60,471 nucleotides of DNA, taken from the IMG/VR virus record IMGVR_UViG_3300025651_000001. One strand, 5' to 3'. The position numbers and the translations under genes were made by a program. The stretch is from a virus. Each line of letters opens with the position of its first letter. Position 1 is the first letter of the stretch. The notes under the pieces were generated by a model. That model had not been told where the DNA came from and made no database searches. It saw only the letters and a program-made list of their open reading frames with translations. Below are positions 2,773 to 60,471 of the stretch, one piece after another.

Positions 2773-2828
2773 GCTATTCAGGGTTGAGGCGGATGACCCG
2801 CCGGCCTAATTGGAAGGGAGACACTGCC

Positions 2829-3662: not shown

Positions 3663-3760
3663 CGGGGCCTGCGCGGCCCCCAGCCGGCCCCGGGGCCCAG
3701 CGGGCCCCCCACCGTGCCGCCCCGGGGCCGGCGCCCCACCTACCGGAAGGGAGATATGCC

Positions 3761-3979: not shown

Positions 3980-3980
3980 C

Positions 3981-4316: not shown

Positions 4317-4329
4317 GGGAGGGAGTATC

Positions 4330-4874: not shown

Positions 4875-4875
4875 G

Positions 4876-5157
4876 ATGACCCACTGGACCAATCGCGTTG
4901 AGACGATGAGTGACCCGCTGGGCGGCACCGTCCTGGGGCTGTCGGGCCGGCGCTATCCTTACCGGCTGGAGCGCGCCCGGCGCTGGAACATAGGCCTCCG
5001 GCGTCACAGCGTTGAGCTCACCGGCCGGATTATCCTCACCCTCGACGGTCGGTTGTCCTACCATGACACCTGGCAGCAGTGCCTCGATGCCGTGGACGAC
5101 TATGAGCGCCGCGAGAATATCAAGCCAATACTGGAAACTACTGTCGTCGAACAATAG
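4876..5157 (+). CDS. Hypothetical protein (93 aa); last gene of the rightward block
   Basis: ATG lies after GGAGATAC. A strong terminator follows. Confidence 0.6.
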   Translation: MTHWTNRVETMSDPLGGTVLGLSGRRYPYRLERARRWNIGLRRHSVELTGRIILTLDGRLSYHDTWQQCLDAVDDYERRENIKPILETTVVEQ

Positions 5158-14214: not shown

Positions 14215-16181
14215 TTGGCCTCTCCCCAGCTCACGCCCACCTCCACGTCCACCTTGGACGGCAGCTCCATCCGGACACACTCGCACATGATCCGGGCCAT
14301 CCGCTCGGCCTCGGCCCGGTCAGCGACCGTCCCGTTGATCTCGTCGTGGACCTGCAGCTGCAGGTAGTGACCGGCAGCGTCCAACTCAACCATCGCCTGC
14401 TTGGTCTGGTCGGCGCTGGAGCCCTGGATGAGGCGGTTGAGCGCCTTGTGGGTCCAGTCATAGGTCCCATCGGGGAGCTGTGGGAAGCGACACCGGCGCC
14501 CAGAGTAAGTCGTGATGAAGCCGACGGCCCGGGCCCGCTTCTCGGCGGCCTTGGCCATTTCAGAGGCGAATGGCACCTTCTGGTCAAACTTGTTGATCAG
14601 GGCCTGTCCCTCGGGCCCGGCGGCCTCGAACACCCGCGCCCCCTCCCGGATCGCCTGCTGGGCAATCGGGTCCGTGGTCGGCACCACGCCGCGCCCCTTG
14701 ATGTACACGGCCAGCATCGTCGGCAGACCAAGTTTCTGGCACAGCTTTGGTCCGCCCATGCCGTAGATTTTCCCCAGGAACAGCTCCTTGGCGTCCTTGC
14801 GCTTGATGCCGGCCATGTCGGCCATCATCTGGTGGTTGTCGGTGGACGGGTCGTCCCGGTACTTGGCGGCCGCCTCCAACGCTGCCTTGAAGGCGCGCTC
14901 GCTGATCAGCCGGTGCCGCCCGGCGACGACGGCCCAGTGCACGAGCCAGCGAGGCTCCTGCTGGCTGTAGTCGTCGGAGCACCACAGCCCGCCCTCCTCC
15001 GGCAGGTAGATGGACCTCCACATCGGCCCGATCTCCTCGTCACGGGCCGGCTGCTGCTGCATGTTTGGGTTGGACGAGCTCAGGCGACCGTAGGCGGCGC
15101 CCTCGGTGTCGTCCTCGCCCTCCTTCTGGTGCCGGAGCTGGTTGAGCGTGCAGTGGATCCGCCCGTTGGTCAGGTGCTCCCGGATGGAGTTGACGAACGT
15201 GGTGCGCAGCTGGCTCATCTTCCGGGCCCGCCGCAGGTGGGCGGCGACGGGGTGATCAATTGACTCCAGGAACTCCTTGGTGATAGACGGCCCCTCCTTC
15301 GTTGTGCGCGGACACTTCACCCCTATGGCGTTGAGCGCCGGCTCAACGACGAGCGGTTTGAAGGTATCCCCGACATTGATGCGTACCCCGGTGTCCCGGG
15401 CCACCTCGGCCAGCGCGATCTCCTCCTGCTGGATCGCCCAGCGCTCTATCTGGTTCAGCCGATCCTGGTCAACCCGGATGCCGCGCCGACGCATACGCAC
15501 GAGGACGGGCAGCAACCGGCTCTCCAGGTCGAAGACGTTCCACAGGTTCTGCTCCTCAATTTCCCGCTCCTGGGCGCGCAGGATCGCGAGCGGCAACGCC
15601 ACGTCCTGCTCAGCGTAGGGTCCGACGAACCGGGCGGGCAGGCGCCAGATCCACTTCTTGACATCCTTCTCCTTCTTGCAGCCGTAGGCGAATGCCGCCT
15701 CAATCAGTCCGCGCTCATCCTTGCCCACCCCGAGGCGGCGCTGGCCGATGTTCTCCAGGCTGTAGCTGTACTGAAGCTCATCCAGAAGCGGCTCCGCGAT
15801 GGTTACATCGCGGAACCATTGAGCCTGCTTGAACTCGATGCCCTCGTTGGCGAGGCCGTCCAGATCGTACCCAAGGTTGGCTCCCACGACGGTGCCCCGG
15901 AAATTGGCTGCCTGCTCGCGCAGGTAGCCAATCACAGCATGCTCGTCCAGGTTGTCGCCCTCGGCGTGCCTGATGGGAAGGTAGAACTTTGGGCCGTCCT
16001 CGATGGCCACCGCCACGCCGGTGATGTAGGCCCCGCGTCTCCAGCCAGGTCCGAGGGTGCGCAGATGGTCGTCCCGGCTCTCGACGTCAATGGCGATCCG
16101 GCGCGCGTCGCCCCACTGGGGCAGCGAGCTGAGCGAGGGCGGGGACCAGGATGCGCAGGGCGTGAACAGCGGGAGTTGCAT
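14211..16181 (-). CDS. Family A DNA polymerase (Pol I-like with 3'-5' exo domain, 656 aa)
   Basis: Exo I IAIDVES. Pol motif A DDYSQQEPR, motif B RKDAKELFLGKIYGMG, motif C LQVHDEI. GAGGAGA RBS at the ATG at 16181. Confidence 0.9.
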   Translation of the reverse strand: MQLPLFTPCASWSPPSLSSLPQWGDARRIAIDVESRDDHLRTLGPGWRRGAYITGVAVAIEDGPKFYLPIRHAEGDNLDEHAVIGYLREQAANFRGTVVGANLGYDLDGLANEGIEFKQAQWFRDVTIAEPLLDELQYSYSLENIGQRRLGVGKDERGLIEAAFAYGCKKEKDVKKWIWRLPARFVGPYAEQDVALPLAILRAQEREIEEQNLWNVFDLESRLLPVLVRMRRRGIRVDQDRLNQIERWAIQQEEIALAEVARDTGVRINVGDTFKPLVVEPALNAIGVKCPRTTKEGPSITKEFLESIDHPVAAHLRRARKMSQLRTTFVNSIREHLTNGRIHCTLNQLRHQKEGEDDTEGAAYGRLSSSNPNMQQQPARDEEIGPMWRSIYLPEEGGLWCSDDYSQQEPRWLVHWAVVAGRHRLISERAFKAALEAAAKYRDDPSTDNHQMMADMAGIKRKDAKELFLGKIYGMGGPKLCQKLGLPTMLAVYIKGRGVVPTTDPIAQQAIREGARVFEAAGPEGQALINKFDQKVPFASEMAKAAEKRARAVGFITTYSGRRCRFPQLPDGTYDWTHKALNRLIQGSSADQTKQAMVELDAAGHYLQLQVHDEINGTVADRAEAERMARIMCECVRMELPSKVDVEVGVSWGEAK

Positions 16182-16542
16182 CGATCTCCTCGTACAGTTT
16201 GAAACTTGCCTCCGCCAGCTCATCGTCGTAGTCGAGCCGGGCGCCAAAGACCTTCAATGCGTGCTCGACGGACTTGCGGTGGCGGTTGAAGGCGCGGCCG
16301 GTCCACGTCAAGTTGAACGTGAAGTTGGCGTGGAGGTAGATCGCCTGGTGGCGAACTGCGACAAGATCGGCGTCGCGGGCGCTCCCGAGGATGGAGGCCC
16401 GGTTGATGTGGCCCTGCCGGCCGTTCAGCCCTTTCACCAACCGGTCGATGATCTCGTCCCTCAGGTCATTGCAAAGACCGCCGGCCTCAGCCAGGACCGC
16501 CGCCCGCTCGGCGTCCGACAATCTCCTGATGTGGTTAGACAT
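16087..16542 (-). CDS. DnaA domain IV-like DNA-binding protein (151 aa)
   Basis: The segment ARDADLVAVRHQAIYLHANFTFNLTWTGRAFNRHRKSVEHALKV follows the DnaA C-terminal pattern (R..AMYL...T..S...IG..F.RDHTTV.HA..K). Its last 95 nt overlap the polymerase start. Confidence 0.45.
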   Translation of the reverse strand: MSNHIRRLSDAERAAVLAEAGGLCNDLRDEIIDRLVKGLNGRQGHINRASILGSARDADLVAVRHQAIYLHANFTFNLTWTGRAFNRHRKSVEHALKVFGARLDYDDELAEASFKLYEEIDATPAVHALRILVPALAQLAAPVGRRAPDRH

Positions 16543-16906: not shown

Positions 16907-17489
16907 CGTTTTCCTCCGGATTGAAGTGGTCCTTGATCCACTTGTCGGCCTCGTCCGCATCCTCGGGCATTCGAGCCCAGACCCATCGGACGCACTCGAC
17001 AAACTCTTGCATATCGTGGGGCAACGGCTTCTTGAGCCAGCCTGCCTCGATACGCAGCCTGATCTCCTCCGTCTGCTGGTTGCCCATCCGGTACTGCTCC
17101 AGACACCACAGCCAGAGCTCCAGACGGTCCAGGGCCTTGAGAACGTCCCTGTGCTCTGGGCTGAGCTGGTGCGCATCGGGGATGCCGAAGCGGGCGCAGA
17201 TGTCCTCGTCCATCGCCCTCAGAGCGGACGCCAACTCCGGATGGTCGTCGATGACCTGCCCCGGGATGTCGCCCGTGAAGCGCTCGGGTGCGTCGTGGAA
17301 CAGAGCCGCCGGGCCAAGAGTAGCCCAGAGCTGCGGCCGGAAGGCCCAGAGCAGCACGAGCACGTTGTACACGTGAATCGCGTTGTTGTACTCCCCATGG
17401 AACGGCGCCACGTGGACACGACGGACGGCGCCGCTCTCTCGGCCGATCTTGGTGATCTTCAGAACTCTCTCAAGCGTGCGCGTTTCCAC
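16869..17489 (-). CDS. HD-domain phosphohydrolase (dNMP/dNTP hydrolase-like, 206 aa, GTG start)
   Basis: Motifs H..N and LFHDAPERFTGDIP. GAAGGGGAGAGG RBS before the GTG at 17489. Confidence 0.7.
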   Translation of the reverse strand: METRTLERVLKITKIGRESGAVRRVHVAPFHGEYNNAIHVYNVLVLLWAFRPQLWATLGPAALFHDAPERFTGDIPGQVIDDHPELASALRAMDEDICARFGIPDAHQLSPEHRDVLKALDRLELWLWCLEQYRMGNQQTEEIRLRIEAGWLKKPLPHDMQEFVECVRWVWARMPEDADEADKWIKDHFNPEENDDFAPEFDFDAH

Positions 17490-18546
17490 CGTCCTCTCCC
17501 CTTCCGTAGTCAACTCCGTCGTCCTGGGCCCTGACCCAGGCCCGGTGCCGTCCCTCGATCCACCTTGAGCAGGCAATCCTCCAGTCGCTGGCCTGACACT
17601 GCTGAACGATCTCCAGAGCGCCGATGTATCGGTCCTCCCCGCGCGTGTCGCGGTAGTGCCGGTGGGCCATCACAATCGGGCACGCCACCGTCGTGAAGAA
17701 GCGGTGATGTAGTTTCGGGTGCGTCGGCTCCTGCCAGAAGATGGTCAGGTCTGCGTCCCACTTGATCTGGGCGTGGGGCATCTCGTCCATGATGGGGAAC
17801 GGCTGTGCCAGCCCAAGCTTGTACATGCAGTGACGCTCCACCTCCTGGGGCCGGTCGGGGATGCTCATCCCCGCCATGACCTCGGTGTAGGCGTGATAGT
17901 TGTTCGAGAACTGGTACATGAAGCCCACGTCGCACCCGAGGGAGCGGGCGACGTACTCCAGCAGCACCGAGAAGTGGACCGCGTTCGCACCGTGGGCGCC
18001 CCAGATCGCGTCATTGGAGCGACAGCAGATAGTCATGTTGACCCGGCCTCGGGTCACCCCGAGGTACACGTGCGTGTTGCAAGGCACGTCCCGGCCGCCC
18101 GCGTCGGCCGCGTCGATGTCGGCCCTCGGATCCCACATCCCAATGACCACCCGGCGGTCATTGGGATCCTTGCGCAGCCTCTGGATTGCCCAGGCCAGCT
18201 GGTCACGGTCGAAGTGCCGGCGCCAGCGGTGGCCGTAGGCGCCCGGCTGTGTCTTGCCGCCGTCGTCGCTGAATTGCGCCATCCGGCTGACGTATGGAGT
18301 GAGCGCCGCCAGATCGTTCCGGCCGGCGAGCATCCACAGGCTCTCAACGAAGTGGAAGAATGGGTTTTCGTTGCGTCCCGGAAGGGATAGCACCCGCTCG
18401 TCGGGCCGATGGGTCACGGTGGTCACCGGCGCCGGCGCGACGATCACCGGACCGTTGCGGCTCGACTGCTCGACGCCGTGCTGAAGCAGAGTAGACAAAC
18501 CTCCGGCGAGTGCGAAGTTGACGTTGCGGACCTCGTTAACGAACAT
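17470..18546 (-). CDS. Thymidylate synthase-fold enzyme, likely a dUMP hydroxymethylase (358 aa)
   Basis: ThyA-like motifs RNENPFFHFVESLWMLAGRND, GAYGHRWR, catalytic Cys in VPCNTHVY, and RSNDAIWG. Its position next to a 5-hmdU kinase-like gene favours a hydroxymethylase. Confidence 0.75.
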   Translation of the reverse strand: MFVNEVRNVNFALAGGLSTLLQHGVEQSSRNGPVIVAPAPVTTVTHRPDERVLSLPGRNENPFFHFVESLWMLAGRNDLAALTPYVSRMAQFSDDGGKTQPGAYGHRWRRHFDRDQLAWAIQRLRKDPNDRRVVIGMWDPRADIDAADAGGRDVPCNTHVYLGVTRGRVNMTICCRSNDAIWGAHGANAVHFSVLLEYVARSLGCDVGFMYQFSNNYHAYTEVMAGMSIPDRPQEVERHCMYKLGLAQPFPIMDEMPHAQIKWDADLTIFWQEPTHPKLHHRFFTTVACPIVMAHRHYRDTRGEDRYIGALEIVQQCQASDWRIACSRWIEGRHRAWVRAQDDGVDYGRGEDGGNAHA

Positions 18547-18672: not shown

Positions 18673-19692
18673 TCAGTAACCCCTCCCCGGGACATACTTG
18701 GCTCGCGGACGACCCTCGCCGTTGCGTACTCTCAGATATTTATCTACCTCGCACAGCGAGTGCTCCACGTCCCTCATCTCCAGCTTCGGTACGTGGAGGC
18801 CCAGGACATCAGAGGGCTCACCGCCGCTCGTCAGTTCCTCGTCAGTCGGGCTGTGGTACGTGGCCCGCTGAGAGTTGAGACGTTCCAGGATGTCCTGCAT
18901 GAGCGCGACAGCGTGCGATGGAGACATCCTCTGAGACGGGTCCACCCCGAGGAGCCGGTTGAGGCCGCGCAGAGCACCAGGCCCGGCGTTGGCCCAGGTC
19001 ATGATGTCCGGCGCCTGTCCGAGATAGCGCGTGTGGCGCATGTCCGTCACCACCTCATACGCCATGAAGGGCCCCCAGCCGACGTAGAAGTCATTCTGGA
19101 AGCGCTCCCACACAGACTGGAGTGTCTGGGGCGTGTCTAGGAAGCGGCGCCAGTCGTCGCGATCCTCCCAGAGCCGGCCGATGACCACCTCGGCGATGTA
19201 CCGCTGCTTGCTCCAGCTGTACCAATGCTTTCTCGGGTCACTCTCGGCGCGGATCATGTAGGCGCCGGTGTAGACCTTGTGTCCCAGGTTCTGGTAGGCG
19301 TCGAGCGCCTCCCCCAACTTCTCAGGCGCGAACGCCTCGTGGGACGGCCACGCGCCCGGGGTCTGCATCAGGTGCTGCAGTGTCGGCGGCCAGTTGATCG
19401 TCCGGGCAATCGCCAGCATCAGCCAGAGGTCAAGATGGTCGGCGAAGGGCCGCCGGATGTTCTCATCAATCCAGATCGTGACGCGGTCCAGCTCCCGGAA
19501 CACGTTGCAGAAGCGGTACTCACGCAGGATCGGGTCGTGGGTCAGGTAGTCGGCTCGATACTCGTGCAGCACTCCCTGGGTGCGACGCGGATTGGCCCAC
19601 TCCGGCACCGGGAGTGCGGCGAGATGCTGCTTGCGCAGGTAGATGGCATGGCGCTCGTTGATCCAGTAGGCCAGGGGAGCAATCCTAAGCAT
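18673..19692 (-). CDS. Alpha-glutamyl/putrescinyl thymine pyrophosphorylase (aGPT-Pplase)-like protein, paralog A (339 aa)
   Basis: Motif YRFCNVFRELDRVTIW and a C-terminal GWGPFMAYEVVTD segment, as I recall for aGPT-Pplase clade 1. One-nt start/stop overlap with the kinase gene. Confidence 0.65.
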   Translation of the reverse strand: MLRIAPLAYWINERHAIYLRKQHLAALPVPEWANPRRTQGVLHEYRADYLTHDPILREYRFCNVFRELDRVTIWIDENIRRPFADHLDLWLMLAIARTINWPPTLQHLMQTPGAWPSHEAFAPEKLGEALDAYQNLGHKVYTGAYMIRAESDPRKHWYSWSKQRYIAEVVIGRLWEDRDDWRRFLDTPQTLQSVWERFQNDFYVGWGPFMAYEVVTDMRHTRYLGQAPDIMTWANAGPGALRGLNRLLGVDPSQRMSPSHAVALMQDILERLNSQRATYHSPTDEELTSGGEPSDVLGLHVPKLEMRDVEHSLCEVDKYLRVRNGEGRPRAKYVPGRGY

Positions 19693-20315
19693 CAGTCGTT
19701 CTCCGCGATACGCGCCAACACTGCCGCCGCGTCCACCGCCACACTCTCACCGAGGACATCCAGGACGAGCTCGCCGCTGTCGAGCGCCTTCCGGCGCGTC
19801 GCCATGACGGCGCGGTGCTTATCCTCGATGGTCTTCGTTCGGGCCTTATCGCCGGTGCGCGCCCGCACACGCTCGATGCAGGTCTCCACCGGGGTGTGTA
19901 GGTAGGTCCAGAGGAAGCGGCGCCCTGTGCTCTCGCGCAGCCTCTGCGCAGTCTCCCTCCACGTCGCGTACACAGTGGAGATGAGTGAGCCCTCGAAGAC
20001 CACCGCTCGGACCTGGACGCCATTGATGCTGCGCGTCTGAGCCGCCGCCTGTACGGCGTCGATGCACAGCTGTGTGGTGGGCACTCTGTCCATGCCGCCG
20101 CAGTTGACGTCGCCGTAGCGCCCAACCAGCAGCACGCCCGTGACCGGGGAGAATGTCCCGTGGATGTATTTCCTGACCGTTCCCTTCTTGGTCTCGGCGT
20201 CGTAGCTGGTGATGATGTGGTTGTTCCAGTCGGTGTCGTGGGTCGTCGGTGTGACGAGCCTCATGGCCAGCGTGGTCTTGCCGGACCCGTTCGTGCCACG
20301 AATGTTGATGATCAT
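19692..20315 (-). CDS. P-loop kinase, 5-hydroxymethyl-dU DNA kinase-like (207 aa)
   Basis: N-terminal Walker A IRGTNGSGKTTLA. GGGAGGGAGA RBS. Flanked by the two Pplase-like genes. Confidence 0.65.
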   Translation of the reverse strand: MIINIRGTNGSGKTTLAMRLVTPTTHDTDWNNHIITSYDAETKKGTVRKYIHGTFSPVTGVLLVGRYGDVNCGGMDRVPTTQLCIDAVQAAAQTRSINGVQVRAVVFEGSLISTVYATWRETAQRLRESTGRRFLWTYLHTPVETCIERVRARTGDKARTKTIEDKHRAVMATRRKALDSGELVLDVLGESVAVDAAAVLARIAEND

Positions 20316-52512: not shown

Positions 52513-54057
52513 TCACGCCGACGGCTGCTGCTCCGGCGGTCGCCCGCCGTTGCCTGCGCCCCCTGCGGGCGCCTGCCCTGTTACCTTCCGTGGCTCCGGG
52601 AGGGTTTCGCGCTCGCGGCGCATCTGCTCGATGTCCGCGTCGGCGTCGTAGTCGCTGGAGAGGAGCCCGCGCCGCTGCATCTCCTTGATCCACTGCTGCC
52701 GGGAGATGTCGCCCCGGTTGCGGGCGTTGGCAAGCTCAGCCAGATCGGCGCTCTCAAAGCCCTGCGGCCCGAAGTCCTCGTTGATCCACACGCTGCCGCC
52801 AGCGTCGTCGCCAAGCCCGAGCCAACGAGCGGTGTACTGCAGGGCCGTCTCCATGGCGTCGCGGAAGGAGATGGTCATGACCTGCAGGGGAGACAGCATC
52901 GAGCGCCGCGCGTTGACGGCCGGAGTGGCGACGTAGGTGGCGACACCCGGGCGCAGATACTCGGCACCATACATCGCCATCTGCTCAAGCAGCGTCTGGA
53001 GGTCCTTGGCGCCCTCGCCGATGGCGGCGCCGGTGGACTCAACATAGTAGAAGCGGCCCTGCGGGTCGCTGGCCCAGAGGACCTTGTTGGGACCCACCTG
53101 GATGTCGGTGCCGCCGCCCGTTCCCTCGCTGTCGGCGCCAGAGACAGCCAGCATCGGGAAGCGCGACACACTCAGGATGTTGCGCTGATCGGTGTAGCTC
53201 TGCCAGTGACACACGTTCATGAACGCGAGGTCAAGCAGCGGCGGCTTCGCCAGCATAAAGGACTGGCGGTCGGTGTAGAAGGTGACCAGCGGCACCTCCT
53301 TCAGCGTCGTCTCGCCCTCCTCGGCCAGCACCCACTTGTCATCGCCCGGCCGCGCGTTCTCGTCGGGCACCCACACCTGCCAGCGGCCGGGCTCGCGGAC
53401 CTGGATGCGGCGCACGATCCGCTCACCGAAGCCCACCCGCTCCACCAGCGTCTCATAGAAGCGCAGGTGGGTGATGACCTCGCGCCCGTTGATCACCTCA
53501 GCGTAGGCCGCAATCACGTCCTCCGGCTGGATGAGAAGCCAGTAGGGACGCAGCCTCTGAGCCCGGTCGTCAGCAAGGGTGCGCGGACGGTTGCCGACGC
53601 GCGGGAACTCCACCAGGACGTGGGCAAAACCCTTGGCCAGACCCTCCCGAAACCACTTCCGGGCGAACACGTCGATGTGCGTTCCGCACAGATCGATGTC
53701 CTCGGCCAGCGTCCTGATCTCCTCGGGCACGTCCGGCTCCAGCCGGATCGGCTGGGCGAACGGGAAGCCCACGAGCGTATCCAGGGTCATCTCAAGCGCG
53801 TTGACGAGGACACCCTGGTTGCGGCGCCTCTCCCAGTTGTCATGCGTCTCGGCGGCATGCTTGGGCAGGTAGATCTCACCCGCCGCGCGCATCGTCTCGG
53901 TGCCGCCAAGCACCGCATTGATGAGGTCCCAGCGAGGCGCCATCACAGCATACTGCATGAAGCGGTGGCTGGGCTGAACCTCATCCGTCTGGCCCGAGGG
54001 CGCGCGCGGGGTCACGCCCGCCGGCTGGGAAGTGTACGAGGTCTCAAGCTTCGCCAT
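52513..54057 (-). CDS. Portal protein (514 aa)
   Basis: ATGA overlap with the terL stop. Size is typical for a portal. Confidence 0.75.
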   Translation of the reverse strand: MAKLETSYTSQPAGVTPRAPSGQTDEVQPSHRFMQYAVMAPRWDLINAVLGGTETMRAAGEIYLPKHAAETHDNWERRRNQGVLVNALEMTLDTLVGFPFAQPIRLEPDVPEEIRTLAEDIDLCGTHIDVFARKWFREGLAKGFAHVLVEFPRVGNRPRTLADDRAQRLRPYWLLIQPEDVIAAYAEVINGREVITHLRFYETLVERVGFGERIVRRIQVREPGRWQVWVPDENARPGDDKWVLAEEGETTLKEVPLVTFYTDRQSFMLAKPPLLDLAFMNVCHWQSYTDQRNILSVSRFPMLAVSGADSEGTGGGTDIQVGPNKVLWASDPQGRFYYVESTGAAIGEGAKDLQTLLEQMAMYGAEYLRPGVATYVATPAVNARRSMLSPLQVMTISFRDAMETALQYTARWLGLGDDAGGSVWINEDFGPQGFESADLAELANARNRGDISRQQWIKEMQRRGLLSSDYDADADIEQMRRERETLPEPRKVTGQAPAGGAGNGGRPPEQQPSA

Positions 54058-55574
54058 CAGAAACCCCTCTGGCCAGCACTGCGCCGCATCCGGCGCACCC
54101 TGTATCTCAGCTCGTCCCCGATGTGGTCCTCAGCGTCCGTGTGGACGTCATCGGGGTTCTTGTCGTCCCGGGGCAGCACGGGCACTGTCTCGATGAACTG
54201 AAGACAGTCCTCCGTGACCCAGAGGCCCGGCCGATCCGGGGCCCCGACCTTGACAGCCTGCAGGCGCTCACGGATCATCTGCCAGCCCTGGCTCCGGCTG
54301 CCCGGCTCCTTCGCCGCGCGCTCCCACCGGACGCCCTGGCTGCGCATCGCCTCAGCGATGTTTGGTGAGCCAGGACGCGGGTCAAAGATAGACGTGTCCG
54401 CCGGCCCCGGCAAGACGCGCCCAACTATTCCCATACGGCGCTCACGCAGGATGATGCCCTGAGCAATGTCCGTCGGGGGCATGTTCAGGCCCTCGTTGCG
54501 CTTGCCGGTGAAGCCGTACCACTCCGCGAAGCGCACCAGGTCGCCGCGCACATGCCCAATCACACGGCCGTCCGGCAGCGTCATGGGCTCGCCATTGCTC
54601 TCGGCATACCATCCCACACTGAACGGGCGGCTCTGGCCGTAGTCGAAGGCCCGATCAATGCGCCAGCCCGACGGGATATTCCGGGGATCGATCCGTGGGA
54701 TGACGTGCACCTGCCCATCCCACAGATCGTCGAACATGCCGCCCGACGTGATGTCCCAGCTGCCCTCCAGCCAGGCGCGCAGCTCGTTTGGGTTGCGCGC
54801 CGACATGCGTAGGCGGTTGATGTAGTCCGGGTCCGCGTCGAGCAGTATACGGTTTTCCATCAGGTGGCCGTGGATGGCGACGCGCGGCGGCTCGGGCGAG
54901 CCATCCGGCCCAACGGCATCGACGATGACGCGCGAGCGCCCGTGGGGCAGCCGGAAGCGCGCCTTGACCCAATTGTGACCGACGCCGTATGGGTTGGTGG
55001 TGGCCCGATACTTCCTCGGGATGCCGGGCACCGTCGAGCGGCAGCACGACATCATCATCCGGTAGCCCTCGTCAGTCGGCCAGGTCGTCAGCTCCTCCCA
55101 CCCAATGAATGGATAGGCGTGGCCGTGATAGTTCCAGTAGTCGCTGGGCCGGTCGAACTGCCGGAACAGCAGCTGCTCACCGTCCGGGAACGTCCACGTG
55201 GACTTGGCCTGGTTGTACTGAGCCGCATCGCCCCAAATCAGGCGAAACCACTTCTGGGACTTGGCGATAAGGTCCCCCAGCTGTGGATAGGACTGGCGGA
55301 AGATGACGCCGCGCCACTCCGGCCCAAAGCCCTGGCCGACGTGCTGGGCGAAGTCCATGAGCAGCGCGTCCGTCTTGCCCGGGCCGCGCGTGCCCTCGTA
55401 CAGCACCTCAAAGACAGGGCAGCTCAGGAACGCCGTCTGCGAGCCGGGCTGCGGCACCCACACGGGTGTCCCTGCAGGCTTTGGAGGCTCAATCCAACCC
55501 GGCGGCACGTTCTCGTGGTGTCGCGGCGAGCCGCCCATCATGATCTCACTTCTCGGACGCTGTCGGACTGTCAT
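54057..55574 (-). CDS. terL: Terminase large subunit (505 aa)
   Basis: Walker A YEGTRGPGKTD. The C-terminal half has Asp-rich nuclease-type motifs. First large gene of the late block. Confidence 0.85.
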   Translation of the reverse strand: MTVRQRPRSEIMMGGSPRHHENVPPGWIEPPKPAGTPVWVPQPGSQTAFLSCPVFEVLYEGTRGPGKTDALLMDFAQHVGQGFGPEWRGVIFRQSYPQLGDLIAKSQKWFRLIWGDAAQYNQAKSTWTFPDGEQLLFRQFDRPSDYWNYHGHAYPFIGWEELTTWPTDEGYRMMMSCCRSTVPGIPRKYRATTNPYGVGHNWVKARFRLPHGRSRVIVDAVGPDGSPEPPRVAIHGHLMENRILLDADPDYINRLRMSARNPNELRAWLEGSWDITSGGMFDDLWDGQVHVIPRIDPRNIPSGWRIDRAFDYGQSRPFSVGWYAESNGEPMTLPDGRVIGHVRGDLVRFAEWYGFTGKRNEGLNMPPTDIAQGIILRERRMGIVGRVLPGPADTSIFDPRPGSPNIAEAMRSQGVRWERAAKEPGSRSQGWQMIRERLQAVKVGAPDRPGLWVTEDCLQFIETVPVLPRDDKNPDDVHTDAEDHIGDELRYRVRRMRRSAGQRGF

Positions 55575-55657
55575 GTCCGCTCAACTCCAGATCCCACTCC
55601 CCCAGGTCAGTCACGCGGGAACATAGCGCCTGTTGGGTGAGCAGTCTAGTCGCCCGC

Positions 55658-55927
55658 TCAGTTCATCCTCAACGCCGCCTCGGCCAGCTCCTCGCTGGTG
55701 CGCCGGTCGTCAGGATAGATGCGAAGGCACAGCGGACAATGCTCCGGCTCGCCCTTGCAGGCCAGCTCCTCATTGTCGTCGGGCGTCGTACGCAGCAGGA
55801 TGTCCACAGAGCCCAGGTCGTCGCCCACCCAGCCCGCCGGATTGCGGCAGACGAACACAACTCCGTCCTCCTCGATCTCCTCGCGCGCAACCGAGATTGC
55901 AGTCACCAGGTCATCATAGTGCATCAT
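55658..55927 (-). CDS. Hypothetical acidic protein (89 aa); first ORF of the late block
   Basis: GGAGCACGAG RBS, ATGATG start. Does not look like a TerS. Confidence 0.6.
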   Translation of the reverse strand: MMHYDDLVTAISVAREEIEEDGVVFVCRNPAGWVGDDLGSVDILLRTTPDDNEELACKGEPEHCPLCLRIYPDDRRTSEELAEAALRMN

Positions 55928-55956
55928 CTCGTGCTCCAGCGGCTGATTCTGCCTGG

Positions 55957-55996
55957 GGAGAGAACAGAGAGGCCCAAGAACTTCCGTCCTTGGGCC
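55957..55996 (-). terminator. Leader terminator/attenuator hairpin upstream of the late genes
   Basis: On the - strand: GGCCCAAGGAC-GGAA-GTTCTTGGGCC (11-bp stem, GNRA loop) followed by TCTCTGTTCTCTCC. Confidence 0.5.
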
Positions 55997-56003
55997 CCCT
56001 GGG

Positions 56004-56045
56004 TCACTTCGTCCGCGTCTTGTCCCGCCCCAGCTTGGTCGCCAT
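56004..56045 (-). CDS. 13-codon leader ORF (MATKLGRDKTRTK)
   Basis: GGAGG RBS 6 nt before the ATG. The stop lies 8 nt before the leader hairpin. Confidence 0.3.
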   Translation of the reverse strand: MATKLGRDKTRTK

Positions 56046-56074
56046 GGCAGCCTCCGGCAGTGTTAGCGGCTGGA

Positions 56075-56104
56075 ATCATAGCTCAACCCAACTCCGGGAG
56101 TCAA
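56075..56104 (-). promoter_or_regulatory. Leftward promoter PL2 (TTGACT, 18 nt, TATGAT)
   Basis: Read on the reverse complement: -35 at 56099-56104 and -10 at 56075-56080. Confidence 0.55.
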
Positions 56105-56363
56105 TCCTGTGTGTGGTGTGCGGGCCGGATTGAAGGCCCGGGGTGTGAGAAAGGTGTGGGGCGTGTCCCGGTCGTGTGTTTTTGTGTGTTTTTGTGTGGT
56201 GGGTACTGTGTCCCGGATGTGCGATCCTGGCCGTTGGAGGAGGGGAGATGAGTCCTGGGGTTGAAACTGTTGGCGCGCTTGCGGTGGAGGTGCACGCACC
56301 ACGGGGGTTGTTTGATTGTCACAGGGGGGCCAGGTGGGGTGGTTGGTTGTCTTCAACCATCTT
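56105..56363 (-). other. CA-rich (GT-rich on +) untranslated leader transcribed from PL1
   Basis: The - strand reads ...CCACACAAAAACACACAAAAACACACGACC.... Only low-complexity ORFs without an RBS are present. Confidence 0.45.
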
Positions 56364-56369
56364 ACAAGT

Positions 56370-56398
56370 ATTATAGTAGAGGAAGGGAGATAAGTCAA
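56370..56398 (-). promoter_or_regulatory. Leftward promoter PL1: perfect consensus TTGACT(-35)... TTGACT, 17 nt, TATAAT
   Basis: Reverse complement reads GAAAAAATTTGTCCGAG...TTGACTTATCTCCCTTCCTCTACTATAAT. It shares the TTGACTTATCTCC core and upstream A-tract with the early promoters. Confidence 0.75.
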
Positions 56399-56486
56399 GA
56401 GGGAATATCGCCACTCGGACAAATTTTTTCTACAGACAGACACCACACACATGTTGTTTGGTTGGTTGGTACAGAGTGGTTGGTTG

Positions 56487-56582
56487 GAGGGAAGGAAGAG
56501 AAGGAAGGAAGAGAAGGGAGGGAGAAGGGAGGGAGAAGGGAGGGAGAAGGGAGGGAGAAGGGAGGGAGAAGGGAGGGAGAAG
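56487..56582 (+). repeat. Purine-only tandem array: 6 perfect copies of the 11-bp unit GGGAGGGAGAA (56516-56581) preceded by degenerate GGAAG repeats
   Basis: Period 11 was verified from the block-by-block shift. There are 12 consecutive G3 tracts on the + strand. Confidence 0.95.
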
Positions 56583-56634
56583 GTACGTCGCCCTAGATGG
56601 TTGGTTGGTCAGTACAGGATGGTTGGTTGTAGGC

Positions 56635-56876
56635 AGAGGGCCGAGGGCCGAGGGCCGAGGGCCGGGCGAGGGCAGAGGGCCGGGCAGAGGGCCGGGCAGA
56701 GGGCCGCCGAGGGCCGGCGCTGGGCAGAGGGCCGCCGAGGGCCGAGGGCCGAGGGCCGAGGGCCGGGCGAGGGCCGAGGGCCGGCGAGGGCCGAGGGCCG
56801 GCGAGGGCCGAGGGCCGGGCGAGGGCCGAGGGCCGGCGAGGGCCGAGGGCCGGCGAGGGCCGCCCAGGGCCAGGCC
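56635..56876 (+). repeat. About 25 copies of the heptamer (G/C)AGGGCC, with a 17/18-bp higher-order unit GAGGGCCGAGGGCCGG(G)C repeated 6 times at 56769-56871
   Basis: Copies were counted directly. All are in one orientation. G-runs are on the + strand. Confidence 0.95.
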
Positions 56877-56945
56877 GAAACTCAAGCGGCGCTTGGCGTT
56901 GAGCCACGCAGACGAAAAAAGTTGTCTCGGAGGCAATTTTTCCAC

Positions 56946-56974
56946 TTGACTTATCTCCGGTCCTAGGCTATCCT
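56946..56974 (+). promoter_or_regulatory. Early promoter PE3 (TTGACT, 17 nt, TATCCT); divergent from PL1
   Basis: Same core as PE1. Upstream GAAAAAAGTTGTCTCGGAGGCAATTTTT. Confidence 0.7.
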
Positions 56975-57024
56975 GGAACCATCGATAGAGGGCGACGCCC
57001 TCGGAACAGGAAGGGAGAACACAG

Positions 57025-57240
57025 ATGACCCGCCAGGACCGCAAGGCCATGCACAACGAGCTGATCGAGCACGGCGTGCCGTACTGCCTCACCTATCGCT
57101 GGAGCGATGGCTATGTGCAGCGAGCCTATCAGCCGGCCGATGACGCGCAAGAGCTGGCCGACTGGTTGCGCGAGAACAGCCGGCTCGCCCGCCTGCTGTA
57201 CGTCCGCGACCTGCGCACCGGCCGCTTCTGCCGCGTCTGA
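57025..57240 (+). CDS. Hypothetical early protein (71 aa)
   Basis: GGAAGGGAGA RBS. First gene after PE3. Confidence 0.7.
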   Translation: MTRQDRKAMHNELIEHGVPYCLTYRWSDGYVQRAYQPADDAQELADWLRENSRLARLLYVRDLRTGRFCRV

Positions 57241-57331
57241 CCGGGCACTCCGGATTGACGCTCTACATTGAGGGCGCCGGTCGCCCTCAAGCTAGAGCGC
57301 CCGCCGGGCGCCGAAGGAAGGGAGAACACAG
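57241..57331 (+). repeat. Intercistronic element R1 (double hairpin plus RBS)
   Basis: TTGAGGGCG-ccggt-CGCCCTCAA (57268-57290) and GCGCCC-gcc-GGGCGC (57297-57311), then GAAGGAAGGGAGA. Confidence 0.85.
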
Positions 57332-57718
57332 ATGACCAGGATCCTCGCCAACTATCCTGCGATCACGATCATCGAGGACAAGGATCGGGAGTTCACCGAC
57401 GGCGACGACATCGCCGTTCCCTACAAGTCAGCCCACCACGGCACCCTCTACAGCTTCTACAAGCTGGGCTCTGTTGAGGAGTATGCCCGCAGGTACAGCC
57501 AGTACAGCAGGGACGTAGAGGCCGCCGTCGCCCACGCAAAGCAGAACGGTCATGCCCTCTACTACGCGAACCCACTCGCCACATCGATCACCGCATGGAG
57601 GAGGGAGAAGAAAACCGTACCGGCATTCTCGCACGGCGACGTGATCAGGGCGTTCGGCAAGAAGTTCAGGATCGTACCGGCGCCGAACCAGAACATCCGG
57701 CTCCAGGAAGTTGAGTGA
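57332..57718 (+). CDS. Hypothetical early protein (128 aa)
   Basis: ATG follows the R1 RBS. Confidence 0.7.
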   Translation: MTRILANYPAITIIEDKDREFTDGDDIAVPYKSAHHGTLYSFYKLGSVEEYARRYSQYSRDVEAAVAHAKQNGHALYYANPLATSITAWRREKKTVPAFSHGDVIRAFGKKFRIVPAPNQNIRLQEVE

Positions 57719-57801
57719 GCCTGAAGACGTTCTACATTGAGGGCGCTGGTCGCCCTCAAGCTAGAGCGCCCGCCGGGCGCCGAAGGAAGGGAGACACGAC
57801 C
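57719..57801 (+). repeat. Intercistronic element R2
   Basis: Same about 65-nt core as R1 (CTACATTGAGGGCGCTGGTCGCCCTCAAGCTAGAGCGCCCGCCGGGCGCCGAAGGAAGGGAGA). Confidence 0.85.
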
Positions 57802-58089
57802 ATGGCCAAGTATCAGGTTGAGTACACGGACACGTTCGCCGGCGAAGCCAACTATTCGTGGGTGAGGCGAGCCACCATCTCCATGCCGGAGCTCACGCAC
57901 TACGGCTGGGATGGTTCGACAGGATACCTCAAGGCCAATCGCACGTATCAGCGCGAGCTCATGCGCCGGGCGAAGGCAGCCGTAGGCCTGACTGGTTTGC
58001 GGGGCCGGACATACGACCATGGGGCCACATACGAATTTCGCCCGTACAGGTCCGCCACGGTCATGTTCGTGACGTGGATCGATGACTGA
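57802..58089 (+). CDS. Hypothetical early protein (95 aa)
   Basis: ATG follows the R2 RBS. The GTG-initiated extension reads through the repeat and is rejected. Confidence 0.7.
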   Translation: MAKYQVEYTDTFAGEANYSWVRRATISMPELTHYGWDGSTGYLKANRTYQRELMRRAKAAVGLTGLRGRTYDHGATYEFRPYRSATVMFVTWIDD

Positions 58090-58176
58090 CAGCCAGGATT
58101 GACGCTCTACACTGAGGGCGCTGGTCGCCCTCAGACTAGAGCGCCCGCCGGGCGCCAGAGGAAGGGAGACACGACC
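58090..58176 (+). repeat. Intercistronic element R3
   Basis: Same core, with a compensatory T:A to C:G change at the base of hairpin 1 (CTGAGGGCG...CGCCCTCAG). Confidence 0.85.
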
Positions 58177-58263
58177 ATGCGCCTCACCACTGCCCTGGGC
58201 GAGCTCATCGCACTCGCCACCTTCATCGCCACCCTCGTGGGCTGGCTGTCCATCCTCGCATGA
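58177..58263 (+). CDS. 28-aa hydrophobic micro-protein (MRLTTALGELIALATFIATLVGWLSILA)
   Basis: Uses the R3 GGAAGGGAGA RBS with the same spacing as its neighbours. Below the ORF-track cutoff. Confidence 0.55.
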   Translation: MRLTTALGELIALATFIATLVGWLSILA

Positions 58264-58277
58264 CCGGAGACACGACC

Positions 58278-58898
58278 ATGACCGACACCGCCACGCTGCA
58301 CCTGCGCACCCTTGCCGCCGTCGCCCTTTTCGCCGAGGGTCCCCGCGCCCAGACGCACCGCCCGCAACTGCGCGGCGTGAACATCACGACAGAGCACCGC
58401 CACACGACATACGTCGCAACGGATGGCGCCGCGCTCCTGGCCGTCCGGCGCCCGGCCGCCAACACGCTGCTCGGCTCCTGGATCATCCCCGCCGACAAGG
58501 TCGCGGTGCTCAAGGCGCCGGCGCGCGGCGCCGATGAGGCAGAGCTCAGCGTCATGGCGGACGGCTGGCTACAAATCGTGGCGCCTGAAGCGCGCGTGCC
58601 GTTCCAACCGATTGACATGCCGTTCCCCGGCTGGCGCGCCGCAGTGCCGCACACGCCATCCAACGAACCTGCCGCATACGATCCCGACTATCTCGCTCGC
58701 ATGCGCAAGGCGGCCAAGCTGGGCAACTTGGGAGAAGTCCAGATGACGCAGAACGGGGAGCTCTATCCAGCCATCTTCACCTTCGCTGTGGCCGGTGAGG
58801 ACGCCCTGGGACTGGTCATGCCCCTGCGGCGAACCGCCACCGCCACTCCCTACAGGGAGGCGCCTGTCATTCCTGGCTGGGCCTTCGCCAATGCCTGA
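58278..58898 (+). CDS. Truncated sliding-clamp (DnaN)-like protein (206 aa)
   Basis: YVATDGAALLAV resembles the DnaN ATDGHRLA motif. PFPGWRAAVP, about 80 aa later, resembles FPDYRRVLP with similar spacing. About half the length of a beta clamp. Confidence 0.4.
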   Translation: MTDTATLHLRTLAAVALFAEGPRAQTHRPQLRGVNITTEHRHTTYVATDGAALLAVRRPAANTLLGSWIIPADKVAVLKAPARGADEAELSVMADGWLQIVAPEARVPFQPIDMPFPGWRAAVPHTPSNEPAAYDPDYLARMRKAAKLGNLGEVQMTQNGELYPAIFTFAVAGEDALGLVMPLRRTATATPYREAPVIPGWAFANA

Positions 58899-58923
58899 CG
58901 CGCCGGCGAGTGACCCTGAGGAC

Positions 58924-58949
58924 GCCGCAGAGGCCCCTCCCTCTGCGGC
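58924..58949 (+). terminator. GC hairpin GCCGCAGAGG-N6-CCTCTGCGGC (terminator or RNA-stability element)
   Basis: 10-bp stem after gene 58278-58898. No U-tract. Followed by the conserved CACCTGAGGGCC. Confidence 0.35.
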
Positions 58950-59001
58950 CACCTGAGGGCCGCCACAGACGAAAAAAGTTGCCTCGGAGACAATTTTCCA
59001 C

Positions 59002-59030
59002 TTGACTTATCTCCGGTCCTAGGTTATCCT
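59002..59030 (+). promoter_or_regulatory. Early promoter PE4 (TTGACT, 17 nt, TATCCT)
   Basis: Core identical to PE1. Confidence 0.7.
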
Positions 59031-59080
59031 GAGACTATCGAAAGAGGGCGATGCCCTCGGAGCAGGAAGGGAGACGTAGG

Positions 59081-59359
59081 ATGGCTACTGTTTCTACAGC
59101 CAAAGCCGCACAGCGATATTTCGAGATGTACGTGATCATCCAGACCCAATACTTCTGTGGGCACAAGTACCAGACGCTCTGGGAGGATGACATTTCCGGC
59201 CGGACTGCCCGCTTTGCCACGGCGAGGGAGGCGCAGGACTACATCAAGGGACTGAGACGCAACATCTACTACTACGCGGCCGGCGAGTATCGGCGACCCA
59301 CCTATCGCGTCTGCCGCATCGACCGTCTGCCGCAGAACCTTGCCGAGACTTTGCACTAA
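59081..59359 (+). CDS. Hypothetical early protein (92 aa)
   Basis: GGAAGGGAGA RBS. Confidence 0.7.
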   Translation: MATVSTAKAAQRYFEMYVIIQTQYFCGHKYQTLWEDDISGRTARFATAREAQDYIKGLRRNIYYYAAGEYRRPTYRVCRIDRLPQNLAETLH

Positions 59360-59395
59360 GCGCCGCTCTGAGCACCGAGGAAGGGAGAACACACC

Positions 59396-59683
59396 GTGGC
59401 CACCATCCGATTTAAAGCCAAGCCGTTCACCGTCTATAACGTCGATGATACGGTGGCGTATGTCGCTATTCCAGTCCCCAAGCTGGAGCGCAGGCATTGT
59501 GACATGGCCGCCTTTCGGAATCACCCGAAGTATGGGCCCTATGCCAACAGCGACCTGTTCGGCGGCATGCTCAACCACATCCGCAAGGAGCGCCTTGGCG
59601 AGACCATCCGACTGGACCGTGTGCCTGAGGGCGTCTCGGTGGACACGTCAGGGTTCCTGGCTGTTGTTACGCTGGACGTATGA
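59396..59683 (+). CDS. Hypothetical early protein (95 aa, GTG start)
   Basis: GGAAGGGAGA RBS 7 nt before the GTG. Confidence 0.65.
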   Translation: MATIRFKAKPFTVYNVDDTVAYVAIPVPKLERRHCDMAAFRNHPKYGPYANSDLFGGMLNHIRKERLGETIRLDRVPEGVSVDTSGFLAVVTLDV

Positions 59684-59705
59684 GCCGCGCGTGACAGCTG
59701 AGGAC

Positions 59706-59728
59706 GCCGCAGAGGCCCCCTCTGCGGC
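59706..59728 (+). terminator. Second copy of the GCCGCAGAGG / CCTCTGCGGC hairpin
   Basis: 10-bp stem with a 3-nt loop. Same flanks as the copy at 58924. Confidence 0.35.
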
Positions 59729-59772
59729 CACCTGAGGGCCCCGAACAGAGCCCCAACCTGGAGGGACGAACC

Positions 59773-60315
59773 ATGACCCACACAATCACGGCCGAGCAGC
59801 TGGTCAAACGGGAGGTTCACGCATGTGTGTCCGAACTGGTGAGCACGCTGGCCAATGCCGCGCACAGATTGAGTGACGACCACACGGAGCTCGCCGGCCT
59901 GTGCGAGCAAGCCTTCCAGCTGTCCACACCTGTACTGGATTACGAGGAAGCCGCGCGTGACGCGGGTTGGAAGCAGAGCCGTCTAGAGTATCGTTACGGC
60001 GAGCTCGTAACCACCGGCCCTCGTTGGTGGTATCGGGGACGCAAACCCGTCCTTGGCGACGTAGACATGAGCATCCCGCAGGCCAGAACCGCCCAAGAGG
60101 CTTGCGAGATGGACAACATAGAGCCCTATGAACGCGAGGTGTGCGAGCATTGGGCCGTGTCCAGCTGGCTGGCCGACAAGCTCATCGAGAAGGGCGAGAA
60201 GGTGGACAAGGGTTTTCTGGGGCTCTGCGTATGGGCGCGGACTACCACTGGAGGACCAATAGCCTATGACTGGGTTATTGAACAGATAGCGGCTGACCTG
60301 AATAGGGCCGCGTGA
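59773..60315 (+). CDS. Hypothetical early protein (180 aa)
   Basis: GGAGGGACGAACC RBS. No motif recognised with confidence. Confidence 0.7.
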   Translation: MTHTITAEQLVKREVHACVSELVSTLANAAHRLSDDHTELAGLCEQAFQLSTPVLDYEEAARDAGWKQSRLEYRYGELVTTGPRWWYRGRKPVLGDVDMSIPQARTAQEACEMDNIEPYEREVCEHWAVSSWLADKLIEKGEKVDKGFLGLCVWARTTTGGPIAYDWVIEQIAADLNRAA

Positions 60316-60344
60316 CCCGGCGACCACCTGACGGCCGCCACAGG

Positions 60345-60471
60345 CGAAAAAAGTTGCCTCCGAGACAACTTTTTCGCTTGACTTATCTCCGGTCCTAGGT
60401 TATCCTGAGACTATAGAAAGAGGGAGACACCCTCTGGACTGGAAGGGAGAAGTAGGATGGCTCAGTATCTC
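60345..60471. repeat. Copy of 1-127 (includes PE1 at 60378-60406 and the first 5 codons of ORF 113)
   Basis: Identical sequence. Confidence 0.95.

Follow-up and report, generated by a model that had tools for sequence, protein, structure and literature searches.

Strand-asymmetric G-rich minisatellites fill the spacer between divergent promoters of an uncultured phage

Introduction

The virus record IMGVR_UViG_3300025651_000001 is a circularly closed metagenomic phage contig of 60,471 bases (the window, by which we mean the whole stretch of DNA that was analyzed), in which bases 1–127 are the same as 60345–60471, leaving a genome unit of 60,344 bp. Within it, at positions 56399–56945, a spacer made largely of G-rich tandem repeats lies between the leftward promoter PL1 and the rightward promoter PE3—that is, between a long leftward block of genes and the first rightward (early) block. 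An initial annotation made from the letters of the sequence had seen in this spacer a candidate for a packaging site (pac or cos), for an origin or partition-like array, or for an insulator. In this paper, we ask only two things: where did the repeats come from, and what, if anything, do they do? We describe the anatomy of the spacer, its variability between strains, the derivation of its repeat units, the structures predicted for it and its strand polarity, and we conclude that it is probably structural, a role as packaging site or origin not being proven.

Results

The spacer is built around two arrays, both with their G-runs on the plus strand. Array A (56516–56581, +) consists of six contiguous, perfect copies of the 11-bp unit GGGAGGGAGAA with 12 G3 tracts, just as the initial annotation had read it. 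Array B (56632–56871, +) holds 25 AGGGCC cores with variable linkers, and the roughly 25 (G/C)AGGGCC heptamers seen earlier resolve, over 56637–56871, into 24 GAGGGCC and one CAGGGCC. The cores are spaced by 7, 10, 11, 12 or 18 nt, the heptamer spacings pair as 7+10 and 7+11 into the 17/18-bp higher-order units already described, and Tandem Repeats Finder (TRF) gives periods of 7, 35, 52 and 101. The same 36-nt double box, TGNTTGGTTGGTNNGTACAGRRTGGTTGGTTGNAGG, stands ahead of each array: unit 1 (56455–56490, +), which is invariant across strain variants, lies directly 5' of array A and is 83% identical to unit 2 (56598–56633, +), which lies directly 5' of array B. The four boxes that had been noted around the first array are copies of GGTTGGTTG at 56460, 56478, 56599 and 56621; further copies occur at 56341, 973 and 1062, and all seven are on the plus strand, where chance would be expected to supply close to none. 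Array A is also preceded by a degenerate purine lead-in (56486–56515, +), two copies of GGAAGGAAGAGAA, which is 16 nt shorter in one set of strains (variant 2), and 56486–56583 as a whole is a 98-bp tract of pure purine, the runner-up in the genome reaching only 18 bp. A 21-nt inverted partial copy of the PE3 5' leader (56586–56606, +; 81% complementary to 56977–56997) follows.

Over 56399–56945, the plus strand contains 257 G, 120 A, 113 C and 57 T, with 46 runs of three or more G against two of three or more C (z = 14 against other 547-nt windows, maximum 18), so the extreme strand asymmetry claimed for the spacer is borne out. Nor does it hold a plausible gene. The lengths found in different strains differ by steps of 11 nt and of 7–12 nt that break the frame, and the frames that do stay open do so through composition alone; GC at the three codon positions is 0.68/0.67/0.72 vs. 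about 0.65/0.45/0.85 in real genes. We rejected a protein-coding reading on the grounds that frames are broken between strains (length differences of 21, 43 and 151 bp) and lack both codon bias and start context. Rfam gave no match at E ≤ 1 in 55500–57400, and no tRNA was found.

The repeat units have recognizable sources within the phage itself. The sequence GGAAGGGAGAN is the phage's canonical extended Shine–Dalgarno sequence: outside the arrays and PL1, it is matched 18 times with at most one mismatch, and 17 of these 18 sites sit 2–6 nt 5' of a start codon. Every one of the 17 start-linked sites serves an early or middle gene (97–25896 and 57009–60441), and none serves a structural gene. 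The unit of array A matches this canonical ribosome-binding site (RBS), and the exact unit GGGAGGGAGAA is the RBS of the gene at 19692–20315; array A thus repeats a working RBS in tandem, with no start codon following it. As for array B, the unit is GAGGGCC(GCC), and the other promoter cassettes carry GAGGGCCGCC in their 5' flank as well. Because the units match RBS and cassette flank, and because a fragment of the PE3 leader is present as well, the spacer looks like a set of cassette fragments that were duplicated and then expanded.

A high potential for G-quadruplexes or triplexes had been suggested, and the predictions agree, in that both quadruplex motifs and a purine mirror repeat are present. 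Counting as a putative quadruplex sequence (PQS) at least four G3 tracts on one strand with loops of 1–7 nt, we find canonical motifs in the spacer at 56516–56577, 56638–56713 and 56722–56869, which are three of the four plus-strand motifs in the genome, and the G4Hunter score is at least 1.5 across 56508–56585. In an energy model that takes G-quadruplexes (G4) into account, the G strand of array A is predicted to fold into three tandem three-layer quadruplexes (−58 kcal/mol) without a Watson–Crick alternative, and its complement is predicted to be fully unstructured (minimum free energy 0). Array B is predicted to form either quadruplexes or hairpins; GGCC-GAG-GGCC, read from the sequence, is a 4-bp stem with a GNA-type triloop. 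The homopurine tract contains a 24-nt perfect mirror repeat (56494–56517), which is the pattern looked for in H-DNA, and the 11-mer array itself is not mirror-symmetric. A leftward RNA made from array A would be 60% C and 0% G, and 56084–56717 is the largest zone in the genome in which the C/G ratio of leftward RNA is at least 2, a zone that runs on into the PL1 leader. Indeed, the G-rich plus-strand polarity extends past PL1 through its 300-nt untranslated leader (56064–56363, −), whose leftward RNA is 40% C and 19% G and thus resembles a rut (Rho utilization) site, for which C-rich, G-poor and unstructured RNA of 80 nt or more is looked for; this leader, of the same polarity as the arrays, carries indels between strains.

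Repeats such as these invite suspicion, and the initial annotation had raised the possibility of an assembly artifact. The same phage is present in more than 12 assemblies, from JGI as well as ENA, and the array architecture is present in more than 10 of them. The spacer is identical in three (JGI 3300025519 Ga0207789_1000133, the window; ENA ERZ761611 NODE_127, at 4782x coverage; and JGI 3300003907) and is found in variant form in at least six others. Three identical assemblies and a recurring architecture rule out an artifact: the arrays are real. Copy number, which was to be compared between related genomes, does vary between strains in both arrays; complete spacers have 4, 6 or 7 copies of the 11-mer, the AGGGCC cores number 8, 17, 23 or 25, and the spacers are 393, 501, 523, 541 or 544 bp long. 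The variant strains are about 95% identical in the flanks, with the boxes and linkers constant; every variant has both arrays and all boxes, and the neighboring leader carries several indels. With copy-number polymorphism between near-identical genomes, the arrays are minisatellites, or variable-number tandem repeats (VNTRs). Many contigs end within them, as expected of short-read assemblers, and we ruled out taking contig ends for physical ends of the genome, since all of them fall in repeats. The strains differ in other ways too. The first early gene (57025–57240) is swapped, with 71 aa in some strains and an unrelated 75 aa in others, the swap being bounded by conserved RBS sequence, and the distance from terS, the gene for the small terminase subunit, to array B is about 2.0, 3.3 or 4.4 kb depending on the strain; these differences in distance mark the early block as highly mosaic.

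On either side of the spacer stand the promoters that the initial annotation had described, PL1 (56370–56398, −; TTGACT-17-TATAAT) with 11 of 12 consensus matches and PE3 (56946–56974, +; TTGACT-17-TATCCT) with 9 of 12. PL1 is of sigma-70 type and drives an 89-aa gene, terL (the large terminase subunit) and the structural operon, and its motif CTTGACTTATCTCC is common to four rightward promoters; PE3 is the first rightward early promoter. The whole spacer is bounded by inverted copies of a 58-nt promoter cassette: the left arm (56373–56430, −), with an A/T-tract palindrome followed by −35 and −10 elements, is 76% complementary to 56914–56971, and the right arm (56914–56974, +) includes PE3. 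In all, the cassette occurs five times at 84–91% identity (1–127, which equals 60345–60471; 2740–2759; 56373–56430, inverted; 56909–57018; and 58966–59074), its parts being the A/T-tract palindrome, the CTTGACTTATCTCC −35 region, a leader hairpin and the canonical RBS. A second early intergenic repeat, (TTGACGC)TCTACATTGAGGGCGCNGGTCGCCCTCA followed by the canonical RBS, has three copies (57255–57289, 57731–57758 and 58099–58133) and, going by its sequence, may represent a second class of promoter or hairpin.

There is in addition a putative promoter-like site on the plus strand (56347–56374; TTGTCT-16-TATTAT, 9 of 12), conserved in all strain variants, whose −10 overlaps that of PL1. This geometry recalls symmetric bidirectional promoters, whose starts are about 18 bp apart. 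The site could transcribe the arrays rightward into G-rich RNA, and that possibility keeps ideas of an R-loop, an origin or an RBS decoy alive at low probability.

The leader of PL1 has features of its own. A small open reading frame (ORF) with a good RBS (56004–56045, −) encodes the 13-aa peptide MATKLGRDKTRTK; variant strains have an in-frame 42-nt insertion that extends it to 27 aa, which suggests that it is a real small basic peptide. In the same C-rich leader, a 14-bp GC-rich hairpin (55968–55999, −) lies ahead of the 89-aa gene, and there is a second promoter-like site (56075–56104, −; TTGACT-18-TATGAT, 10 of 12). Hairpin and site may be signs that the late operon is controlled by attenuation or antitermination. 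A fifth TGGTTGGTTG box (56333–56351, +) lies within a 20-nt direct repeat whose partner, at 964–983, is at the far end of the early block, and a second cluster of boxes of this type (940–1070, +; five matches with at most one mismatch) overlaps the 3' end of terS at that other boundary. Genome-wide, the TGGTTGGTTG boxes cluster at exactly these two loci, and so the early block is edged on both sides by a cluster and by a copy of the direct repeat, GGTGGGG(A)TGGTTGGTTGTC, at 964–983 and 56333–56351.

The gene layout, which we derived from frames called by GC at third codon positions (GC3), consists of a long leftward block of head, tail and replication genes (55927 down to 5563, −), small genes that run rightward from 57025 over the closure to 842 (+), terS on its own in the leftward direction (990–1640; phrog_4044, E 3e-38) and a second rightward block (2202–5157, +). 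The TerL gene (54057–55574, −) encodes a protein 65% identical to those of the Pseudomonas phages PaMx11 and Ab18 (Abidjanvirus, Mesyanzhinovviridae) and 62% identical to those of the Bordetella Vojvodinaviruses. Replication proteins are encoded as well—a DUF5906 primase-helicase (10137–12491), a family A polymerase and a weak DnaA_C-like protein (16087–16542)—and there is a thymidylate-synthase-like gene (17470–18546, −); thymidine is hypermodified in the relatives M6 and YuA, so the DNA of the present phage may be modified too. A 96-aa early protein (57799–58086, +; phrog_22729) shares 70% identity with proteins that giant Caulobacter phages encode in their terminal repeats; it is present in Stenotrophomonas and Pseudomonas siphoviruses as well.

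The spacer lies 0.9–1.3 kb upstream of terL and between divergent promoters, as had been stated. Is it, then, where packaging begins? Relatives of the Mesyanzhinovviridae type are described as circularly permuted headful packagers, and the reads of Ab18 map as a circle with no end peaks; for these reasons, the cos role that had been entertained is unlikely. The 127-bp overlap by which the window is circularized comes from assembly, and the contig ends all fall in repeats; we see no unique cohesive ends. The pac role is weakened too, because terS, within or beside which a pac site would be sought, is 4385 bp from PE3 round the circle and has its own repeat-bearing upstream region (1665–2200), and because terS is not beside terL; with the 3' end of terS, the spacer has nothing in common but the TGGTTGGTTG boxes. 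Relatives have terS immediately 5' of terL, with a noncoding region of 650–930 bp ahead of terS. Here, the two genes are parted by 4.4–5 kb of opposite-strand early genes, and in all relatives examined they abut.

The proposed origin role fares no better, since the features one would look for are at 1.7–2.2 kb, outside the spacer. The origin-like region (1665–2230), between the divergent terS and orf2202, contains a perfect array of a 24-bp unit in 3.4 copies (1718–1799, iteron-like), the genome's sole long AT-rich stretch (1920–1965, 45 bp), a short G-rich tract on the terS strand (1979–2005) and the only two matches to the DnaA-box consensus in the genome (2078 and 2215). In the spacer itself, the TTWTNCACA box has no match, there is no AT-rich unwinding element, and the iteron-like features are the six 11-bp repeats and the boxes. 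By its sequence, 1665–2200 is the better origin candidate and also the better terS-proximal pac candidate, and its layout resembles that of the pre-terS regions of Ab18, PaMx11 and CN1. GC skew was uninformative as an origin call because nearly all genes are on one strand. As to partition, also proposed, Pfam and PHROGs scans of ten neighboring proteins found no ParA, ParB or ribbon–helix–helix (RHH)-type gene.

How old, and how widespread, are the arrays? A blastn search of 55600–57400 against 50,697 phage records found no close isolate, and in IMG/VR, the metagenome collection and 5.8 billion proteins there is no lineage with a TerL between 98% and 68% identical. The arrays are absent from the relatives at 67–68% TerL identity, from the 65% isolates, from 77 further TerL loci and from TerS loci. 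This absence from the nearest relatives makes the arrays lineage-specific and counts against an ancient essential signal. In the 67–68% relatives, the genes are codirectional, with terS and terL adjacent, and the lineage-specific arrays would fit with having arisen when a rearrangement brought a rightward early block in between these two genes. Relatives do carry lineage-specific tandem repeats or G-rich tracts 5' of terS, and their contigs often break there. In the Abidjanviruses PaMx11 and Ab18, an irregular G-rich region of about 250 nt with GGGC/GAAGGGC motifs on the coding strand lies between the last early gene and the pre-terS region. The PaMx11 record has (CAGCAC)10 in this region and is linearized inside it, its start being at most a candidate physical end.

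Beyond the family, when 2.9 million viral contigs were searched for exact (GAGGGCC)3, 11 contigs from about six phage lineages with GC contents of 42–68% were returned. Five lineages have long intergenic (GAGGGCC)n arrays of 10 to 24 copies. The array is 50–330 nt upstream of TerL (phrog_38) in one (L124), immediately ahead of a terS-like gene and TerL (phrog_2) in another (L126/L129), and between other codirectional genes in the remaining three (L122, L123 and L131). In all five, the flanking genes have the C-rich strand as their coding strand, the polarity that the present arrays have relative to terL. Upstream of TerL in L124, three heptamer arrays that differ from one another follow in succession, and L126 mixes (GGCCGGT)n with (GGCCGAG)n. 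Apart from one weak match (E 2e-6), no proteins common to the (GAGGGCC)n contigs or to the present phage were found at the level tested, and no shared protein adjoins the arrays in the other phages. Two scrambled heptamers of the same composition each returned six contigs, with shorter arrays, several of them inside long ORFs; in this small sample, (GAGGGCC)n stands out, though not uniquely. Its recurrence would fit a function that depends on polarity, an association with the head of late or packaging operons, or a mutational tendency to expand in a unit that readily forms hairpins or G4. Array A was found elsewhere only in three unrelated bacterial genomes, which are uninformative. The repeat strings occur in none of the papers searched, and nothing of this sort is described in the papers on Ab18, Lydia, Vojvodinavirus and ZC01. 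A repeat-array spacer is itself familiar; what is new is the total strand asymmetry, the RBS-derived G4 array, the recurrent heptamer and the double-box module.

Discussion

The reading that we favor, tentatively and with an appreciable chance of its being right, is that of a spacer that grew by slippage, is prone to form structures and serves as a polar barrier where two strong promoters diverge. Pieces of the promoter cassette—the RBS and the GAGGGCC(GCC) flank—would have been amplified between back-to-back cassettes, and we infer that replication slippage grew the arrays and still shifts their lengths, with help from structures on the G strand (three tandem quadruplexes in array A; GGCC-GAG-GGCC mini-hairpins or quadruplexes in array B). 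The spacer would keep two strong divergent promoters of host type 0.4–0.55 kb apart and could absorb their negative supercoils by flipping to G4 or H-DNA. A leftward RNA polymerase would meet a G-rich template there and produce an unstructured pyrimidine/C-rich RNA suited to Rho loading, and the late packaging operon would thereby be driven from PL1 alone. Any such insulating or barrier effect, which we likewise infer, would be exerted, if at all, in cis and without sequence-specific recognition. The insulator of the initial annotation is thus plausible, and it is in this modified, polar form, not in its original one, that we prefer it.

Several points weigh against such a barrier. No leftward promoter is known to feed the arrays, and the early genes to the right are on the other strand, so a barrier to leftward traffic may find little to stop. 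None of the strains seen has lost any of the four boxes or either array, and unrelated phages have the heptamer array too, in two cases a short way 5' of terminase genes; retention and recurrence together hint at a more specific role, although strains that differ by only about 5% make the retention weak evidence either way. Finally, the formation of G4 and H-DNA is a prediction.

The arrays may, of course, do nothing. They could be a tolerated by-product of the rearrangement that set the early block back-to-back with the late operon, fragments of a cassette expanded by slippage through units that form hairpins or G4; we regard this as a serious, if somewhat doubtful, alternative. It draws support from the descent of the units from the phage RBS and cassette flank, from 11-mers that are perfectly identical and variable in number, as in a young minisatellite, and from nearest relatives without arrays and the existence of other GC-rich heptamer arrays in phage contigs. 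It is harder to square with the presence of both arrays and all boxes in every variant beside a leader that has several indels, with (GAGGGCC)n arrays that are longer and more consistently intergenic than the scrambled controls, and with a polarity relative to the flanking genes that is the same in five of five other lineages.

Could the spacer instead be a signal linked to packaging? The arrays, with or without the TGGTTGGTTG boxes, would then mark the place where terminase is loaded for the first headful cut, recognized either by TerS or by virtue of a non-B structure such as a G-quadruplex, as has been proposed for herpesvirus pac1. We consider this unlikely. The arrays do lie where the packaging operon starts, 0.9–1.3 kb 5' of terL; (GAGGGCC)n is near terminase genes with the same polarity in the unrelated L124 and L126/L129; boxes cluster at the terS 3' end also; relatives have tandem repeats or G-rich tracts before terS, where contigs frequently break; and herpesvirus pac signals form G4 (PMC13595911). 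But terS is 4.4 kb distant and has its own repeat region, the same heptamer is unlikely to be read by unrelated TerS proteins, and in L122, L123 and L131 the array is away from terminase genes. Copy number, moreover, varies freely, the closest relatives have no arrays, and the family shows no end peaks.

A replication element strikes us as improbable. In that case, the TGGTTGGTTG boxes would be iterons for a primase-helicase resembling P4 alpha, with two clusters about 5 kb apart like ori and crr of P4, and the G-rich arrays would aid unwinding (G4 on one strand, the pyrimidine strand a landing pad for the helicase) or, alternatively, would give rise to an R-loop, transcribed from the antisense face of PL1, that primes synthesis. 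The 11-bp phasing of array A by the helical turn, the restriction of boxes to exactly two loci, the encoded DUF5906 primase-helicase and family A polymerase and the plus-strand promoter-like site that points into the arrays with G-rich nontemplate polarity all speak for it. So does the precedent of lactococcal c2-type phages, in which the origin lies between divergent early and late promoters. On the other side, both DnaA-box matches, the only long AT-rich stretch and the 24-bp array of 3.4 copies are at 1.7–2.2 kb, the spacer has no AT-rich unwinding element, and the arrays are free to differ in length and are missing in relatives.

A broader proposal, which we rate as a long shot of the same order, is that (GAGGGCC)n and other one-stranded G-rich arrays like it are a structure-based signal, a G-quadruplex or mini-hairpin at the head of the packaging or late operon, read by the packaging or replication machinery and not by a sequence-specific TerS. 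Such a signal would have arisen independently in unrelated tailed phages, in parallel with the G4-forming pac1 of herpesviruses, and would be combined here with an RBS-derived G4 array and a duplex-opening bidirectional promoter.

Very improbable, last of all, is an RNA decoy, in which a rightward RNA with 6–12 Shine–Dalgarno copies would be a sponge for ribosomes or an RBS-binding factor, or a leftward one with six anti-RBS copies would bind early and middle mRNAs by base pairing and so silence their translation: the array A unit does match the phage RBS with one mismatch, which is very unlikely by chance, this RBS type is confined to early and middle genes and never precedes structural ones, and the plus-strand promoter-like site is present, but Rfam has no match, the region right of the arrays has no known leftward promoter, and the similarity is explained equally well by descent from an RBS.

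It is useful to set the spacer beside systems that are better understood. The "a" sequence of herpes simplex virus 1 (HSV-1) contains the DR2 tandem repeats. Herpesvirus pac1 is a G-rich, quadruplex-forming packaging signal, and the "a" sequence and pac1 are like the spacer in having one-stranded G-rich repeats with G4 potential near the site of action of a terminase from the same realm (PMC13595911), and also in their variable copy number. Unlike the spacer, pac1 and pac2 are at mapped genome ends, whereas this phage family is circularly permuted and the spacer has no T-rich core flanked by G-runs.

Among phage packaging repeats are the pac hexamers of P1, the pacL and pacR boxes of SPP1, the R sites of lambda cosB and the SRL/SRR heptamer arrays of T7. 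These, too, are arrays of 6–16-bp repeats near terminase genes, and T7 SRL/SRR shares the heptamer period. Yet they adjoin or sit in terS or terminal repeats and have fixed copy numbers, whereas here terS is 4.4 kb off, copies vary and there is no terminal repeat, the 127-bp overlap being an assembly closure. Iterons and centromeres offer another comparison: parC of R1 has 11-bp repeats, ten in number, flanking a promoter, and pSM19035 omega heptads and P4 ori/crr octamers are of the same kind. The helix-phased 11-bp and the 7-bp direct repeats beside promoters and the two box clusters about 5 kb apart, which recall P4 ori/crr, are points of likeness; in contrast, the spacer has no ParM, ParA, ParR or RHH gene or AT-rich region nearby, and its units are G-rich and identical to an RBS.

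Bacterial and phage VNTRs share with the spacer perfect short units, copy polymorphism in near-identical strains and assemblies that break inside, but not the total strand asymmetry, the two arrays after the same 36-nt double box or the units that are regulatory motifs. The flanking cassettes, 58–110 bp long and present five times among strain-variable small early genes, are like the mobile promoter/stem-loop (PeSL) cassettes of T4-type phages. This likeness covers the flanks and not the arrays, and to our knowledge PeSLs do not expand into G-rich minisatellites. Zones of R-loop or G4 formation are familiar from immunoglobulin switch regions, mitochondrial conserved sequence block II (CSBII) and the Neisseria pilE G4 with its small RNA promoter; they share with the spacer a one-strand cluster of G-runs downstream of a possible promoter (here 56347–74, +) and beside a highly mosaic gene block, any transcription through the present arrays, like any recombination or priming role, being hypothetical.

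What does the spacer mean for the biology of this phage and others? Even as nothing more than a slippage-grown spacer, the arrays can be used to type strains of an uncultured phage that is abundant, they account for the breaks in assemblies at this spot, and they make the spacer a clear example of an RBS and a promoter flank expanding into minisatellites. If the spacer is a polar barrier, or a G4 signal for packaging or replication, it would be, as far as we have found, an undescribed use of non-B DNA in a tailed phage, and a G4-based signal would link the packaging signals of phages and herpesviruses. The part most deserving of a systematic survey is the recurrence of the heptamer array in phages whose GC contents range from 45 to 68%.

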